Positions 9,364-62,824 are shown, numbered from the stretch's first letter. The stretch is 64,000 nt of DNA from an uncultured delta proteobacterium (GCA_963706575.1 CAVPNL010000005.1:288001-352000); one strand, 5' to 3'. Translations and numbers: made by a program. Notes: a model not told the origin generated them from the letters alone.

Positions 9364-9387
9364 AATTGTAATTTTGTGAATCTGTAA

Positions 9388-9999
9388 ATGAGAATTTTAA
9401 CACTTTCAGATCGGGTTGAGCCCGTTTTGCATGATCAATTTGATCAACGGCAGTTTGAAGACGCCGACCTGATTCTCGCCTGCGGCGATCTACCACCGGA
9501 ATACCTCTCTTTTGTTTCCGGCAAATTGAACGTACCGCTTTATTTTGTGCGCGGCAACCATGACCTGCGTTATGATGCCGGCCCGCCGCCGGGCTGTGTC
9601 AATCTGGCAGATAAACTGGTTCAATTCAGGGGGAAAAATATTCTCGGGCTGGAAGGTTCTCGCTGGTACAATGGTGGGCCGCACCAGTATACCGAAAGGG
9701 AAATGCACCGGAAGATAAGAGGCTTGCGTCCCCGGATCTGGTGGAAAGGCGGAGTCGACATCGTCATTACGCATGCACCGCCACGGCACATCCATGATGC
9801 AGAAGACAGGTGTCACAGAGGCTTTAAGAGTTTTCGCTGGTTGATTGACAAATATTCACCGCATTATTTCATTCATGGACACATTCACGCGAATTTTAAC
9901 GAGCCGTCCGATCGGGTAACGATCGTTAACCGCACACGCGTTATTAATACCTATGGATATCATCTGTTTGATTTTGACGGCACCGCGGATGCAGAATAA
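9388..9999 (+). CDS. Calcineurin-like metallophosphoesterase
   Basis: SD, CGDL, RGNHD, THAPP and HGHIH metal-binding motifs. Confidence 0.85.
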   Translation: MRILTLSDRVEPVLHDQFDQRQFEDADLILACGDLPPEYLSFVSGKLNVPLYFVRGNHDLRYDAGPPPGCVNLADKLVQFRGKNILGLEGSRWYNGGPHQYTEREMHRKIRGLRPRIWWKGGVDIVITHAPPRHIHDAEDRCHRGFKSFRWLIDKYSPHYFIHGHIHANFNEPSDRVTIVNRTRVINTYGYHLFDFDGTADAE

Positions 10000-10036
10000 T
10001 TATTGAATCGGCGTTGGATACCACTGGATTACCGAA

Positions 10037-11071
10037 ATGCTAAAATCTTTCAAGGAAGTTCAGGAGCAAGAGGCGGCTTTTGATACCCGCGATCGCGGAA
10101 CCCGTATGGTTCCGTTGGACCGAATCGTCGGTAGCGTTGGCCGTTATCAAGATTTTGACGAACGCTTCCGGATCCGGTCCCATCTCCCCCCTGAAAGGCT
10201 GGAAAAAATAAGAAGCAAAATGAGAGCGGGTAAAACGCTGCCGCCGGTTAAGCTGTATCAAATCAAAAATGATTACTATGCCCTGGACGGCAATCATCGA
10301 ATCGCGGCTGCCAATGATCTCGGCTACGGGGAAATCCAAGCTCAAATTCTCGAGTTTCTGCCTTCGAAAGGCTCTAAAGAAAACCTGCTCTACCGTGAAA
10401 AAGCCCAGTTCGACGATCATACCCAGTTACCGTATTCCATTGAGCTGACTGATTTCGGCCAATACGAACACTTAATTGAGCAGATATCCAGACACCGGGA
10501 TTATCTTGAAAAGAACGCCGCCACACCGATTGCTCTTCAAAAAGCGGCCAAAGACTGGTATGAAACCATTTATAAACCGCTAATTGCCATTATTAAAAAA
10601 GGAGATCTGATCGGACACTTCCCGGGCAGAACCCTGGCGGATCTTTATACCTTCATATCCGCTCACCAATGGGAGCGCAAAGACCACGGACTCAGATATG
10701 GAATTGGAATCAGTCAACTGGTTCCCAAGAACATGGAGGATTTTCGGAAAAAAATGGCTAAATTAAAAGAGACCGAATACCCTGAAATGCTGCGGGAGAT
10801 TACCGCTTTTGTGCTGATAAACGCGTCGGCTAAAAAAGAGGTTCGTCTTGTCGACAAACTCATCAACCTTGACGAAGTAAAAGAAGTGCATTCAGTCCAC
10901 GGCAGTGTGGATATTATTGCCAAAATCGTGTTGAGGCGCGATCTGGTCTCCTCGGATGCTGAAACCATCGGAGATTTTATACATAACAAGATCCGGCAAC
11001 TTTCCGGTGTGATCAGTACCCAGACCTTAATCCCGGGCTACTCCAAAATAAAGAAGAAAGATGAAAATTAA
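10037..11071 (+). CDS. ParB/Srx-like N-domain, DUF4032-like middle and Lrp/AsnC ligand-binding C-domain protein
   Basis: IVGSVGRYQDF, LPPVKLY, YYALDGNHR (ParB-like); C-terminal AFVLI...VHSVHGSVDIIAK...GVISTQT (AsnC/RAM domain). Confidence 0.7.
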   Translation: MLKSFKEVQEQEAAFDTRDRGTRMVPLDRIVGSVGRYQDFDERFRIRSHLPPERLEKIRSKMRAGKTLPPVKLYQIKNDYYALDGNHRIAAANDLGYGEIQAQILEFLPSKGSKENLLYREKAQFDDHTQLPYSIELTDFGQYEHLIEQISRHRDYLEKNAATPIALQKAAKDWYETIYKPLIAIIKKGDLIGHFPGRTLADLYTFISAHQWERKDHGLRYGIGISQLVPKNMEDFRKKMAKLKETEYPEMLREITAFVLINASAKKEVRLVDKLINLDEVKEVHSVHGSVDIIAKIVLRRDLVSSDAETIGDFIHNKIRQLSGVISTQTLIPGYSKIKKKDEN

Positions 11072-11079
11072 ATCGGAGT

Positions 11080-11468
11080 TTACGATTCAGGCCATTTAAT
11101 GCCGTTGGACGGTTTGACGAGCTGTTTCCGAATAAACTCGTGAATCTGATCTGAAACATCTTTTGTCCAGGTAGCGAGCGACCCCGGCGCCGGTGCCAAC
11201 GGCGACCTGGGTAAAATTTCGATCCACCCGTTTAACTTCCACCGTGACGGGAGTACCATTCCCACGTCTTGCCAATATTTCGGTTCTTAATTCATCCGCT
11301 TTTTTCATTTAAAATAGATATTTCAAGATTTTCCAATGCATCCGTGCTGGCCTGAACCGCTTCATTATATTGCAATTGGTACGTTTTTATTAATTTGCCC
11401 TGAAGTTCGGCACAGCCGCCGGTCAACAGTGAAACAGACAGGCAGATGATGAGAAAGGCAGATTTCAT
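11080..11468 (-). CDS. DUF3568-like lipoprotein, split by two +1 frameshifts (probably sequencing errors)
   Basis: Lipobox LLTGGC; three overlapping ORF pieces (11292-11495, 11096-11308, 11080-11265) join into one protein of about 128 aa. Confidence 0.55.
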
Positions 11469-11678
11469 GTAATTATAATATCTTATTTTTGTCACGGAGT
11501 CAAAAATGATGCCATTCGAATTTCCAACTGGTTCGCGATCGTGATCTATTTTGTTGCGGTGAAGTGTTAACTTGTTAACTTTACACTTGTTAACATATGT
11601 AAACTAAATGAATCGGCAAGATCACCCCAATAATTAAATTTATATAATAAATACAAATAGATATAATGTTAACAGGGT

Positions 11679-11694
11679 TGGCACGATGATTGCT
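11679..11694 (+). promoter_or_regulatory. Sigma54 (-24/-12) promoter of the cytochrome-rhodanese-otr module
   Basis: TGGCACGATGATTGCT matches TGGCAC-N5-TTGC exactly; AT-rich flanks and upstream TGTTAAC repeats. Confidence 0.8.
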
Positions 11695-11819
11695 ATTTAT
11701 TTTCTTATTTATAAGGTAGCAGCTATGAACCATCCTGCAAACTAGGCGATTGGCATTTAAATTTTCTACTTAAACTCAACAATTATAAATAAACAGAAAT
11801 TTCATTAAAAGGAGGAACC

Positions 11820-12165
11820 ATGTTCAAAAAGATATTTTTAACCATGTTGGCACTTGTTTTTTGTTTTCAGCACCGTGGGGGTCAGCTTTGCGCTGGATAA
11901 AGGCAACAAGCGCAAAGGCAAATACACCTACCGCAAAGTTTACAAGGCCTGTTTTGAGCGCGGAGAGGTTGAATCCAAGGTGCCGCCCATCAGCCCGGCC
12001 GACAAGACCCAGGCGGAGTGGACATCTGTTTTCGAGTCAAAGAAATTTGAGATGTTTGGATGCGATGAAGAGTGGGCACAACTGTCGGAAATTGAAGTTA
12101 CTGATATCTATACGTATTTGCATGATCATGCCTTTGATTCACCCACACCGGCGAAATGCAAATAA
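11820..12165 (+). CDS. Small exported cytochrome-c-like protein lacking a full CxxCH (one +1 frameshift in the signal peptide)
   Basis: AGGAGG RBS and ATG 11820 (MFKKIFLTMLAL) join ORF 11854..12165 across a T-run. GNKRKGKYTYRKVYKAC resembles a class I cytochrome c N-terminus; C-terminus HAFDSPTPAKCK. Confidence 0.55.
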
Positions 12166-12245
12166 CTGCAGGATTCCATCAGGGTCAATTAAAGGAGGGG
12201 GCGTTAATTCCGCTTTCAAACCCATAGAAAATAAAGAAGGAGGTT

Positions 12246-13366
12246 ATGATGCGTTTAACAAAATTGACGGCATTATCTTTTGTGCTCTGCCTAGTTCTGG
12301 CATTCGCTTTTGGATGTGCCGGCACCCAGAAGACAGCCGAGCCGGCCAAAGCCGACTGGCAGTTTCACGACATTGTGGATGTGGGGTTTGTGCAGCCGTA
12401 CGCCACGGTGCCCCAGCCCGAAGGGGTGATGATCATTGATGCGCGGCCCTATCAGCCCAAATACGCCAACGGTCACATTCCCACGGCCATCAGTATTCCG
12501 GACAGCCAGTTTGACAAAATGACCGACAAACTGCCCGAGGATAAGAATGCGCTTCTGATCTTTTATTGCGACGGCCCCACCTGAAAGCTGAGTCACAAAT
12601 CCGCCTGGAAGGCGGAAAAACTGGGTTACAGCAACGTTAAGGTGTTTGCCGCGGGTTTTCCGGCCTGGATGAAAGCCAAAGGCAATTATGCGGCGGTTTC
12701 CGTTGAATACGTGGCCAAACAGGTCGAGTCCAATGCAGGCCATCGTCATCGATTCACGGCCCAAAAAACCCAAGTATGACAAGGGCCATATTCCTTCGGC
12801 CATCAGCATTCCCGACAGCGAGTTTGACAAGCTGCAGGGCAAGTTGCCCCGGGACAGCGAAACACCGCTGATTTTTTACTGTGACGGTTTTACCTGAAAG
12901 TTGAGCCATCAATCCGCCCGGAGGGCGGTCCAGCTGGGCTATACGAATGTCAAGGTGTTTGCCGCGGGCTATCCGGCCTGGAAAAAGGCATACGGTGCAG
13001 CGCCGGCAGCCGTTGCGGTTAAGGCCGGCAGCGCAGAAGGCTCGATCGACATCGCCACCTTTGAAAAGATCATAAAAGAAAATCCGCAGAGCATTATGCT
13101 CATCGATGTGCGCGATCCCGATGAGTTTGCGGCCGGGTCGTTTAAAACCGCCGTTAATATTCCCACCGACGAACTGGAGAAAAAAATTCGCCACCCTGCC
13201 GGCAGATAAACCCATCGTGTTTGTCTGTAACACCGGTGCCAGAAGCGGTGAGGCGTTTTACATGGTCCAGGATATCCGGCCGGAGATGAAAAAGGTCTAT
13301 TACCTGGAAGCTGAAACGATCTATAACAAGGACGGATCGGTTAAGATTACCAAGCCGGCTTCCTAA
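12246..13366 (+). CDS. Three-domain rhodanese lipoprotein with two selenocysteines (UGA 12582-12584 and 12895-12897), about 372 aa; two +1 frameshifts
   Basis: Lipobox LAFAFGC. Domain 1 IFYCDGPT-U-KLSHKSA, domain 2 IFYCDGFT-U-KLSHQSA, domain 3 VFVCNTGARS. GHIP/IDARP rhodanese signatures; a SECIS hairpin follows each UGA. Confidence 0.88.
12600..12616 (+). promoter_or_regulatory. Bacterial SECIS hairpin (rhodanese Sec1)
   Basis: TCCGCCT-GGA-AGGCGGA, starting 15 nt after the UGA. Confidence 0.75.
12914..12928 (+). promoter_or_regulatory. Bacterial SECIS hairpin (rhodanese Sec2)
   Basis: CCGCCC-GGA-GGGCGG, with the loop at the same distance from the UGA as SECIS1 and a compensatory T-A to C-G closing pair. 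Confidence 0.75.
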
Positions 13367-13401
13367 CGTTTAATTGAATACAAGAATGCATAGAGACGAT
13401 T

Positions 13402-13429
13402 GCAGCCGTTCCTTCCGGGGACGGCTGCA
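13402..13429 (+). terminator. Hairpin after the rhodanese gene (weak terminator or stability element)
   Basis: GCAGCCGTTCC-ttcc-GGGGACGGCTGC with only a short U-tract. Confidence 0.45.
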
Positions 13430-13460
13430 TTCACTGATAAGCATAGGGGCTTTGCCCCAG

Positions 13461-13581
13461 TTGGAATGATGGAACAATGGAATGTATGGGATAATGGGTT
13501 TAAAAAAACTGAATTCAGAACGGCAAATTAAGCTTCTTTTCTTACCCAGTATTCCAATTTTCCACTATTCCATTATTCCAT
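13461..13581. repeat. Inverted short-tandem repeat (TGGAAT units versus ATTCCA units)
   Basis: TTGGAATGATGGAACAATGGAAT ... TATTCCAATTTTCCACTATTCCATTATTCCA. Confidence 0.65.
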
Positions 13582-13671
13582 GTGGCTGACAAAAACAGAT
13601 AGCCACAAAAAGTATTACAATTCCAAAAAGTTATAGAAATTCCGAGACGTTTAATTACAGGGGAGTCAACA

Positions 13672-15322
13672 ATGAAAGCAGTAGAAAAGAAGAATTCTTT
13701 TCTTAAATATATTATCCTGATAATGGCCGGGTTGATGCTGTGGTGTACCGTGTTATTTGCTGCACAGAGCGATGAGAGCCAGGCGCCCGGGCGCACCATG
13801 GCCCAGCAGGCCACCAAGGGCCAAAAGGTCTGGAATACCACCGATCATACCAAACACAAAGCCTTGCAGCAAGGATTTTAAATCCGGCCTGGAGGTCACC
13901 CAGGCCTGTCTTTCCTGTCATTCCGAAGCCGAAGCCCAGTTTCACAAAACCGATTCACTGGACCTGGCTGGCCGATCCGGCGGACAAAAACAAACAGTTC
14001 GGCAAAGCCGGAAATTCTCTCAATAATTTCTGTATTTCAACCAACAAAACCAAAGACAAGGGCTGTCTGTCCTGCCATCCGGGATGGGGCACCTCCAGGG
14101 ATAAGGGGATCAACTGTCTGGTCTGTCACAGTCGAAAAGGAAATGAACTGGGATGAAGCCATGACAGATATCAAGGCTTTTCTCGAAGCCGGCGATGAGG
14201 ATTCGCTGGAAATTGCCAGAGAGATCCAGGCCGAGCTGCGCGAAGCGGCCCAGAGCATGTGGTCGACCCGGCCGCAAAAATTGCGGGTCCTGCCATTTTT
14301 ACGGCGGCGGCGGTGACGGGGTGAAACACGGCGACCTGGATACCTCTCTGGCCAAACCCAATAAGGCCCTGGATGTCCACATGGGCGTCGACGGCCGCAA
14401 TTTTGACTTGTGTGCGCTGTCACACCACCAACCTGCATAATATTGCCGGTCGGGTTTATACACTGCCGGCGGCAGCGGAGCGCAAGAGCCTGGTGGAAGA
14501 TGATTTGGCCTCCAAGATCACCTGCGAATCCTGTCACACCCAGTACGCCCCACAAAGCCGGGTCCAAGGCCAACGATCATACGGACAAGGTGGCCTGCCA
14601 GAGCTGTCATATTCCGGAGTTTGCCCGGGTGAATCCCACCAAGATGTCCTGGGATTGGGCCCAGGCCGGCAGAAAAAAAGACGGCAAAAAATACAAGACC
14701 AAAGACGAGTTCGGCAAATTCGATTATATGACCATCAAGGGTCAGATGAAGTGGGCCAAAAATATCAAACCTGAATATCTCTGGTATAACGGCATCATTA
14801 AATCAGTGACGGCCAAGGATCAAATTGATCCCGGCCAGCCGGTAAAAGTTTCCTGGCCAGAGGGCAGCCGGTTGGATCCCAACGCCCGCATCTATCCGTT
14901 TAAAGTCCATCGCGGCAAACAGCCATACGACAAGGAGCACAATACACTGCTGGTACCGCTGCTGTCCGGCAAAGATGGTTACTGGACGACCCTGGATTGG
15001 AATCGGGCCCTGAGTAAAGGCCAGGAAGCTGTGGATCTGCCTTTTTCAGGCCGGTTTGATTTTGTGGAGACCACCTATGTATTTCCGATTACCCATATGG
15101 TGGCGCCCAAAGAAAACGCCCTGGCCTGCAGCGAGTGCCACAGTCGACAGGACAGCCGTCTGGCGAATCTGGGCGGTTTCTACATGCCCGGGCGGGATCG
15201 GGGTCAATTGGCTCGATATCTTGGGCTGGATCGCTGTGTTAGGCGCTTTAGCCGGGGTGGTTCTGCACGGCGCGGGTCGATTTTTTGCCAACGGCAAAAA
15301 CAACAAAAACAGCGCGAAATAA
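13672..15322 (+). CDS. otr: Octaheme tetrathionate-reductase (OTR)-family cytochrome c with C-terminal membrane anchor, about 547 aa; seven +1 frameshifts
   Basis: Reassembled frames give eight CxxCH motifs (CLSCH, CLSCH, CLVCH, CGSCH, CVRCH, CESCH, CQSCH, CSECH) and OTR signatures TTDH, IHWTW, NNFC, GGGGDGVKHGDLD, TKMSWDW, ITHMVAPKE; C-terminal TM WIAVLGALAGVVLH. Confidence 0.85.
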
Positions 15323-15362: not shown

Positions 15363-15398
15363 AAAAAGGGGGTCCGCCCGAGGCGGATTCCCTTTTTT
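15363..15398 (+). terminator. Intrinsic terminator after otr
   Basis: AAAAAGGGGGTCCGCC-cga-GGCGGATTCCCTTTTTT. Confidence 0.75.
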
Positions 15399-61774: not shown

Positions 61775-62824
61775 ATGATCGATTTGAAAAAGCCGCGCTT
61801 GACCGAAACCGTGGCCGGTTCCGGGTGAGCTTCCAAGCTGCCGCCAGGGGACCTGGAGCAAGCATTGTGCGGGTTGGAGATTCCAACCAACGAGCGTGTG
61901 ATTGTCGGCATGGACAGTCTGGACGATGCCGGCGTATATAAAATTTCCGATGATCTGGCCATTATCCAGACCGTGGATTTTTTTACACCGATTGTAGACG
62001 ACCCGTACTGGTTCGGCCAAATCGCTGCCGCCAATGCGCTGAGCGATATCTACGCCATGGGCGGGACTCCCAAAACAGCCATGAATCTGGTGGGCTTTCC
62101 GCTGAAGCAAATGGATATCTCAATTTTGCGGCAGATCCTTCAGGGCGGTCTGGATAAAATGAAGGAGGCCGGTGTCATGCTGGTGGGGGGGCACAGCGTG
62201 GAAGACAGCGAGCTGAAATACGGCCTTTCAGTGACCGGATTCGTCCATCCGGACCGCATTCTGACAAAGAAGAATTTAAACGCCGGTGATCGTCTTGTGC
62301 TAACCAAGCCACTCGGCACCGGTGTTATCAATACGGCCATTAAAGGCGGCGTGGCTTCAGTCAAAGTAATTGATAAGATAACTCGATTGATGGCAACGCT
62401 TAACCGGAATGCGGCTGAGATAATGAAACAATATTCGGTGCACGCCTGCACGGATATTACCGGTTTCGGCTTGCTGGGGCATCTGGCAGAGATGGTGGAC
62501 GGTACCGGGCTGGGTGCCGTCCTGGATTCTAAAAGAATTCCCATCTTGTCTGAGGCTGTGGATTACGCGGCCATGGGGATGCTGCCGGCGGGTGCAAATA
62601 AAAACAAGATCTTTCGGGAGTCGATGGTTGAATTTTATTCTTCCGTGAACCCGCTGATACGGGATCTTTTATTTGATCCCCAGACATCCGGTGGTTTGCT
62701 GATCTGCATCGATAGGGATGACTCCGATGAACTGGTTGAGGAGCTTATTCAAAAAGGCAGTGACTCATCGGCCGTTATTGGAGAGGTGGTTTCAGCACCG
62801 CAAGAGAAAATTGTGGTCAATTAG
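61775..62824 (+). CDS. selD: Selenide, water dikinase; Sec-containing form (U18, UGA 61826-61828), 349 aa
   Basis: AAGGAG RBS, MIDLKKPRLTETVAGSG-U-ASKL in frame with ORF 61865..62824 (DDAGVY, QTVDFFTP, GGHS, TDITGFGLLGH, DPQTSGGLL). Confidence 0.95.
61844..61856 (+). promoter_or_regulatory. Bacterial SECIS hairpin of selD
   Basis: CCAGG-GGA-CCTGG, starting 15 nt after the UGA. Confidence 0.75.

Follow-up and report, generated by a model that had tools for sequence, protein, structure and literature searches.

A three-domain rhodanese gene whose two in-frame UGA codons almost certainly encode selenocysteine, found beside an Otr-family octaheme cytochrome gene in an uncultured delta proteobacterium

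In a stretch of DNA from an uncultured delta proteobacterium related to sulfate reducers (GCA_963706575.1 CAVPNL010000005.1:288001-352000; 64,000 nucleotides, hereafter the window), two repeated rhodanese domains are each interrupted by an in-frame TGA in the active-site loop. Are these codons stops, or do they encode selenocysteine (Sec) in a single protein, and what would such a protein do? Direct reading of the sequence placed the start of a three-domain rhodanese frame at ATG 12246 and its end at TAA 13364–13366, on the plus strand like all features given below. Comparison with intact relatives defined a gene of about 372 codons (12246–13366) with two Sec codons and two single extra bases. 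Loop 1 (12567–12584) runs from TGC at 12567 to TGA at 12582–12584 and reads C-D-G-P-T-U in the context FYCDGPT-U-KLSHKS; loop 2 (12880–12897) runs from TGT at 12880 to TGA at 12895–12897 and reads C-D-G-F-T-U in the context FYCDGFT-U-KLSHQS. Both loops were supported by homologue alignment, and the TGAs at 12582 and 12895 occupy the same position (CxGxxU), as an earlier note on this DNA had observed. Its claim that the domains continue past each TGA was borne out by the identity of domains 1 and 2, which spans the codon (58 of 85 residues, 68%). The third domain has the proposed Cys-only loop, C-N-T-G-A-R (13226–13243), whose Cys is invariant in 121 aligned rows; a loop of this type was matched by pattern in 35 of 37 full-length relatives. 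The CxGxxC motif that the note had given as the Cys form of the rhodanese loop holds for this subfamily but not for rhodaneses generally, the third domain itself having the ordinary CxxGxR. Standard gene calling (table 11) reproduced the predicted break-up into four ORFs (12246–12584, 12688–12897, 12901–13209 and 13106–13366).

Judging from its sequence, this is probably a single gene for an exported product of about 40 kDa with three rhodanese domains and a lipid anchor. The predicted signal peptide (12246–12317) ends in a lipobox-like AFG-C with a putatively lipidated Cys24 at 12315–12317; by pattern reading, the AFGC box is non-canonical and a hydrophobic leader precedes Cys24. Among relatives with a start, the lipobox Cys is present in 20 of 22 Sec/Sec, 6 of 10 Sec/Cys and 1 of 9 Cys/Cys proteins (loops 1 and 2, in that order). 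The rhodanese profile PF00581 matched the intact relative L009 in three stretches (157.7 bits), compared to 19.6 bits for the window's cut third piece alone, where the gathering score is 22.2. A structural model of L009 showed three rhodanese domains (pLDDT 86.6, pTM 0.58) joined by low-confidence linkers at residues 23–30 and 250–253. In domains 1 and 2 of the model, Cys ends a strand and Sec closes the six-residue loop just before a helix, a placement that puts Cys at the usual catalytic position and Sec at the position of Arg in domain 3. A fold search returned only generic multi-domain rhodaneses (TM ~0.25), and a sequence search of solved structures returned distant rhodaneses and no close relative.

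A two-stem hairpin lies 3' of each UGA, with an upper stem of 6–7 bp and a GGA loop 22 nt after the codon, in agreement with the SECIS-like elements described in the earlier note. Hairpin 1 (12586–12627; upper stem 12600–12616) folds at −16.1 kcal/mol with a z of −3.36 against dinucleotide shuffles. Hairpin 2 (12899–12940; upper stem 12914–12928) folds at −18.3 kcal/mol with a z of −1.31, which alone is not significant, 22 of 200 dinucleotide shuffles folding as well. When the codons were exchanged for synonyms, only 6 of 500 recodings for hairpin 1 and 3 of 500 for hairpin 2 folded as well as the native sequence. The comparison across related loci was sharper: an apical hairpin at −7 kcal/mol or better lies 3' of 168 of 169 TGA sites versus 5 of 48 Cys sites, counts that are inflated by kinship. 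Five upper-stem pairs are kept in 167–169 of the 169 TGA sites; a C-G pair has become T-A in 15 and in 4 sequences. The GGA loop occurs at 155 of the TGA sites, whereas none of the eight loops most often seen at Cys sites has it. Within Sec/Cys genes, domains 1 and 2 show the same contrast. The bSECIS model, as given in the accessible part of PMC13188914, specifies a loop of 3–9 nt, G in the first two loop places, a distance of 16–37 nt from the UGA, and a stem of 4–16 bp at no more than −7.5 kcal/mol; both window hairpins lie within these limits.

The genome encodes a full Sec system. Profile searches found selA (604.8 bits, cut-off 267.9), selB (376.5 bits, cut-off 242.25) and selD (380.3 bits, cut-off 125; a second copy lies on contig C3), and tRNA-Sec (selC) scored 75.2 bits against a cut-off of 47, with ARAGORN in agreement. 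The earlier note had named a genome lacking selA, selB or selC as grounds for giving up its reading; all of them, and selD, lie above their curated cut-offs. It is thus strongly supported that SelB reads both UGAs as selenocysteine via the hairpin 3' of each, and the two apparent stop codons almost certainly encode Sec in one exported sulfur-transfer protein. The selD gene that the note had pointed to is indeed in the window (61775–62824, by profile search) and carries its own in-frame TGA (61826–61828), giving unlinked support for Sec decoding, but a link to the rhodanese gene was rejected, as some 48 kb separate the two and none of the neighbour clusters common to at least three related loci contains selD. 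The genome contains other Sec rhodaneses, one with a TsoB-like UxxxxU loop (G000:C6:243370-243642) and two with a CxU loop (C12:216031-216279 and C4:552743-552979). ARAGORN also reported a tRNA-Pyl at G000:C15:118432-118505, so this genome may decode both Sec and Pyl.

In relatives from a first set of 40 related genomes, the gene is one uninterrupted frame of 367–386 codons whose first two loops are Sec/Sec, Sec/Cys or Cys/Cys; over all relatives the frame spans 367–391 amino acids. Among the 120 distinct two-loop cores of the related loci (L001–L305), 79 are Sec/Sec, 32 Sec/Cys, 9 Cys/Cys and none Cys/Sec, counts that are neither independent nor frequencies, since the loci are related to one another and most were retrieved with patterns that demand a TGA (at least 119 and at least 120 matches). 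Sec in domain 2 was seen only together with Sec in domain 1, and the absence of Cys/Sec carries some weight because one TGA pattern fits either domain. The 217 distinct loop sites of these loci have TGA (169), TGC (43) or TGT (5). A protein search gave 3,281 matches at E 1e-20 or better among 8,000 scored, of which the best 120 were examined. An alignment of 121 rows combined 13 loci, 7 of them with Sec entered as Cys, with 108 of these 120 proteins and left out six Trp-bearing proteins and six that were near-duplicates or of odd length; all five of its loop Cys/Sec columns, including all three loop Cys, are invariant. Cys opposite both UGAs, which the earlier note had proposed to look for, was therefore found in both the related loci and the protein alignment.

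Named Sec/Sec carriers are mostly Desulfobacterales and Desulfobacteraceae genomes, together with Desulfobacula, one Desulfarculaceae genome and the Olavius Delta 4 symbiont; single Sec/Sec records in other phyla may be binning errors. A narrow DNA pattern matched 1 of 300 other genomes in a phylum sample, being too narrow to give the range of the gene. On a quick tree of 65 rows, the allele labels need at least nine changes and are clustered beyond 200 shuffles. Because this tree was midpoint-rooted, we make no claim on the order of Sec gain or loss; Sec was entered as Cys, and residues constrained by the SECIS element may introduce a bias. At one locus (L044, G005:C48), the flanks are 88–97% identical to window 9371–14449 and the rhodanese gene 61–79%, suggesting that the rhodanese allele was exchanged there; the L044 gene is a Cys/Cys allele that has no lipobox Cys. 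One genome carries two Sec/Sec copies with the same core, one in each of the operon layouts described below (L042, G035:C54 and L043, G035:C30), and in another (G034) the PhsA-layout copy is Sec/Sec and the Otr-layout copy Sec/Cys.

The operon, which the earlier note had overlooked, is the best clue to function and, in our view, more worth an experiment than the recoding. It is preceded by a pattern match to a sigma-54-type site (TGGC-N7-TTGC, 11679–11693), which we take to fit the −24/−12 consensus; 17 of 25 related loci have the same pattern upstream of the small gene. The small gene (11821–12165, with an extra base near 11850) encodes an exported protein with a cytochrome c fold, by family and Atlas matches, that has no haem motif and ends in DSPTPAKCK. 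In 81 distinct copies, a C-terminal Cys is always present, mostly as DSPTPAKCK, and CxxCH is present in 14 and lost in 67, making this Cys-tailed protein a candidate swinging-arm sulfur carrier. Downstream of the rhodanese gene is an Otr-family octaheme cytochrome (TIGR04315; 13672–15325, end approximate, about seven extra bases), assigned by profile and structure match. Intact relatives of the Otr protein scored 511 and 527 bits against the TIGR04315 cut-off of 375 and matched 1SP3 at E 2e-101; the window's gene has seven CxxCH motifs across three frames, compared to eight in 17 of 17 relatives checked. A terminator-like hairpin (15363–15397, pattern match) lies 3' of the Otr gene. Between the rhodanese and Otr genes is a short repeated element (13536–13650), with similar stretches on contigs C15, C6 and C3 and a high contig depth in two runs.

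Related loci have two layouts. In the first, a divergent sigma-54 activator gene is followed by genes for the small protein, the rhodanese, Otr and cytochrome b; in the second, an NrfD-Otr fusion, the small protein, a PhsA-like molybdoenzyme, a 4Fe-4S subunit and the rhodanese are encoded, with a TorD-like gene on the opposite strand. The best NCBIfam match of the molybdoenzyme is PhsA, at 573 bits against a cut-off of 694. Two different operon types thus retain the same trio. We counted neighbours in 112 of the 305 loci (L035–L146), using distinct cores with at least 1.5 kb of upstream and 3 kb of downstream flank: an Otr and/or PhsA-like gene lies within 6.5 kb of 25 of 27 two-loop genes versus 5 of 35 single-Sec relatives, one of these five (L096) being of the short two-domain layout by length and probably misfiled. 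The small Cys-tailed gene is near 25 of 27 two-loop genes versus 2 of 35 single-Sec relatives. In this genome the operon has no cytochrome b and activator genes; their homologues adjoin on contig C6 (~G000:C6:946975-949350), where the pair stands without small protein, rhodanese and Otr genes. One related locus (L039, G019:C181) shares upstream synteny with the window and has a Sec/Sec gene that is followed not by Otr but, within 5 kb, by selD and a TorD-like gene. Elsewhere in the window, a long cluster (20000–58000) with two-component and sigma-54 regulators holds genes that, from their translations, are presumably NarI-like, HdrA-like, MvhD-like and CCG-domain genes.

What would a double-Sec rhodanese do in such an operon? 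Its constant association with genes for sulfur-reducing enzymes suggests a role in delivering sulfur to reductases, and we consider it rather likely that it is a carrier like Sud, the periplasmic partner of polysulfide reductase, taking up sulfane sulfur and handing it to the reductase encoded next to it. Polysulfide, thiosulfate or tetrathionate would donate sulfane sulfur to the first Cys of a loop, forming a persulfide there, as is standard in rhodanese chemistry. In domains 1 and 2, the Sec that ends the loop would then attack or resolve the persulfide through an Se-S bond, a step that we propose would allow fast release of the sulfur or its handover to the adjacent-encoded reductase. The receiving enzyme would be the Otr octaheme cytochrome here and a PhsA/PsrA-type molybdoenzyme in many relatives, and the small cytochrome-like protein may relay the sulfur on its Cys tail. 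Sec would improve the rhodanese site rather than be required for it, since Cys/Cys alleles occupy the same operon slot. In the accessible parts of the sources, Sud is reported to bind polysulfide with high affinity and rhodaneses to supply reductases with sulfur (PMC6378623), and Sec is reported to drive polysulfide reduction in MccSep (PMC13510729). The weak point of the carrier model is the substrate of Otr. As described in the available part of PMC12949373, deletion of Otr in Shewanella ANA-3 left tetrathionate respiration unaffected, sulfite or nitrite reduction is proposed instead, and the physiological function is not established; sulfite and nitrite present no obvious need for a sulfane carrier.

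A more specific form of the carrier model, which we put forward only tentatively, is a previously undescribed relay in the periplasm, made up of the double-Sec rhodanese and the Cys-tailed protein, in which sulfur would move from persulfide sites to a swinging Cys and on to the Otr or PhsA-type enzyme. If so, Otr in marine Desulfobacterales would naturally act on sulfane sulfur bound to protein, and close relatives, with Sec/Sec, Sec/Cys and Cys/Cys alleles swapped at a single locus, would offer a natural series for measuring the contribution of selenium.

The same selenoprotein could instead be a redox or protective helper, whose CxxxxU pairs, as centres of the thiol-disulfide type, would strip stuck sulfur from the catalytic Cys of Otr or the molybdoenzyme or re-reduce it, or would serve in maturation. 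The two chalcogen residues of each of these loops are invariant, a TorD-like chaperone gene adjoins many PhsA-type loci, and an NNFCI motif is conserved in the Otr protein of 16 of the 17 relatives examined; Sec, moreover, usually marks redox catalysis (accessible part of PMC13188914). However, the rhodanese fold is kept throughout, the third domain has an ordinary sulfurtransferase loop, and the shared neighbourhood clusters contain no thioredoxin-like or DsbD-like partner, which makes the helper and maturation roles, taken together, rather unlikely and leaves the Sud-like carrier as the preferred reading.

The frame of the window's own copy is broken by two +1 shifts, raising the question of assembly error or decay. 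The insertions that the earlier note had placed at about 12735 and 13185 were located by comparison with relatives at 12736 and within 13181–13189, the latter in or just after an A run; both are probable assembly errors. The first falls in the 6-base bin at ~12736 in 23 of 29 covering loci and in the next bin in 4, the second in two bins spanning 13181–13189 in 7 and 18 of 27. Related contigs from three of four sequencing runs (X1, X16 and X18) also leave out the first extra base, and the second was not among the matches listed for run contigs. The contigs of the four runs examined are from relatives, mostly at less than 95% identity, and reveal neither the bases of this strain nor how strongly the gene is expressed; those of the RNA run, which cover the rhodanese gene, are no proof of transcription. 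The neighbouring genes have extra bases near 11850, 13870, 13950, 14135, 14256, 14406 and 14540, and weakly near 15204, giving about ten insertions within 3.4 kb (11.8–15.3 kb).

Such clustering in three adjacent genes is what would be seen if the family were real and this copy lay in a recently inactivated operon with genuine frameshifts. Further downstream, no indel interrupts a gene across 10,272 coding bases, so any assembly errors are local, and general assembly noise as the full account of the frameshifts is unsupported. Inactivation would also accord with the cytochrome b and activator homologues lying elsewhere, on C6, and with our search for reads of this strain, which found none: of the 24 runs listed, 20 match in part, with a best word share of 0.27. 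Several observations argue against decay. First, every uncompensated change is an insertion of one base, and the three pieces contain neither a deletion nor a new stop; one-way insertions are typical of unpolished long reads. Second, the window's pieces differ at 4 of 149 conserved columns, compared to a family median of 3. Third, synonymous codon changes exceed replacement changes against each of three relatives (70:45, 70:58 and 86:43). Lastly, both SECIS hairpins and the sigma-54 site are intact. Four close relatives, at 81–85% DNA identity over the region, have intact Sec/Sec frames. We therefore regard the two shifts as very probably assembly errors and recent inactivation of the operon as unlikely.

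The protein might alternatively handle selenium, binding selenite-derived selenium or passing it on for detoxification or delivery to SelD. ExtH, a rhodanese-like lipoprotein of Geobacter, is reportedly tied to selenite uptake, and in L039 selD lies 3.9 kb downstream of the Sec/Sec gene. Given, however, that selD is distant here and no shared neighbour elsewhere, that the conserved partners are sulfur-reductase genes with Cys/Cys alleles in the same slot, and that no ExtH family model appears among the NCBIfam matches, we consider this role improbable.

As to the codons themselves, relatives differ in how much of the Sec system was recovered. selA was found in three of five Sec/Sec relative genomes (fragmented assemblies), the other two having selB, and in four of five Cys/Cys relative genomes, indicating that Cys/Cys alleles occur in Sec-capable cells. 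In five further genomes, four Sec/Sec and one Cys/Cys, selB was found in 4/5 and tRNA-Sec in 1/5; among the four Sec/Sec genomes, selB was missing in one and tRNA-Sec in three. The assemblies of these relatives are fragmented, one of the Sec/Sec genomes being 97% complete. All five genomes carrying named related loci have selB. The Trp-bearing database proteins, six of the best 120 with Trp at both sites, come from contigs of 1.3–2.7 kb and look like gene calls made with code 4, one of them having the same loop residues as locus L153, whose DNA has TGA. Despite these Trp copies and the selA or tRNA-Sec genes undetected in some Sec/Sec genomes, it is extremely unlikely that the UGAs are stops or Trp codons in separate small proteins or a pseudogene, and we rejected this reading: a metagenome DNA scan with the same pattern found TGG 0 times and TGA at least 120 times, no codon other than TGA, TGC and TGT occurs at the 217 loop sites, SECIS hairpins are tied to the codon, and this genome has the full Sec system. 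Homologues with Trp or another non-Cys residue, the other ground on which the earlier note would have been abandoned, are therefore probably miscalls.

How does the gene compare with known Sec rhodaneses? Table 1 of PMC13188914, in the part accessible to us, gives five rhodanese selenoprotein forms, of which form 1 (PF00581, UxxS, exemplar WP_010941598.1) has one Sec. The loop of this exemplar, FYCGGVT-U-VLSPKS (supplement 3 of PMC12013277), has the same loop type and Sec position as ours (FYCGGVT-U-VLS versus FYCDGPT-U-KLS), and form 1 proteins are likewise exported, with three rhodanese domains and a Cys loop in the last. A protein with the form 1 layout (L056) is collinear with L009 (115 of 317 residues identical, E 4e-46). 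Form 1 differs in having an extra N-terminal domain, a middle domain without the Cys loop and one listed Sec; the two-Sec subfamily has no extra domain, and a second Sec domain, 68% identical to the first, replaces the inactive middle one. The CxGxxU and xxS motif of form 1 is therefore present and the one-Sec layout of its exemplar is not matched, and the rhodanese gene is filed as a variant of form 1 with a different layout. Form 1-layout proteins were common in the DNA pattern scan, and the Geobacter exemplar was not among the at least 119 pattern matches listed. The Sec site was already known, since form 1 has the same loop position once, and because the single-Sec form has been predicted since 2005 (as cited in the available part of PMC13188914), the chemistry of the Sec site is not new in kind and the gain is moderate. 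The word 'hidden' in the earlier note makes the find sound newer than it is, the Sec site being catalogued as part of a single-Sec family.

TsoB (NF045694, form 5) is the best NCBIfam match and the only two-Sec rhodanese in the accessible Table 1 of PMC13188914. It shares Sec at the last loop position and two Sec per chain, but has both Sec in one UxxxxU loop of a 572-position model, whereas the loops here are CxxxxU; membership was rejected at 119.5 bits for an intact relative against a cut-off of 805. NF041203 (form 3, CxU) and the COG0607 and COG2897 Sec rhodaneses (forms 2 and 4) share the fold and a Sec in the active-site loop, but at loop position 1 or 3 rather than 6, and membership of NF041203 was rejected at 79.8 bits against a cut-off of 115. 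The two-Sec form is absent from the 2026 table of 119 families in the accessible part of PMC13188914. Supplements 1 and 3 of PMC12013277 yielded no KLSH-type Sec sequence, the supplement of PMC8318568 gave no match, and a literature search whose scope did not extend to Zhang and Gladyshev 2005, Haft and Tolstoy 2025 and RefSeq annotations returned no paper on this form. Sec sulfurtransferases were counted in Olavius symbionts (PMC1976440, available part), where the two-Sec gene also occurs (L097).

Sud of Wolinella succinogenes (PDB 1QXN) resembles our protein as a polysulfide-binding rhodanese of a sulfur-reducing cell (PMC6378623, in the part available) and differs in being a single domain of 137 residues without Sec. 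Its profile match to domain 3 is weak (E 1.6e-5, rank 19 of 22), and we treat it as a putative functional analogue and assign no family. Otr (TIGR04315, 1SP3) is accompanied here by the Sec rhodanese and the Cys-tailed small protein. Few selenoproteins carry two Sec in repeated domains. This conserved sulfur-reductase partner is missing from the annotations of marine sediment Desulfobacterales because gene callers cut the gene in three (four here) or read Trp. Its fixed tie to Otr and PhsA-type genes, 25 of 27 for the two-loop genes versus 5 of 35 for single-Sec relatives, raises the question of whether a Sec rhodanese feeds sulfane sulfur to these enzymes. The Sec site was known before; what differs here is the loss of the N-terminal domain, the second Sec domain and the tie to sulfur reductases.
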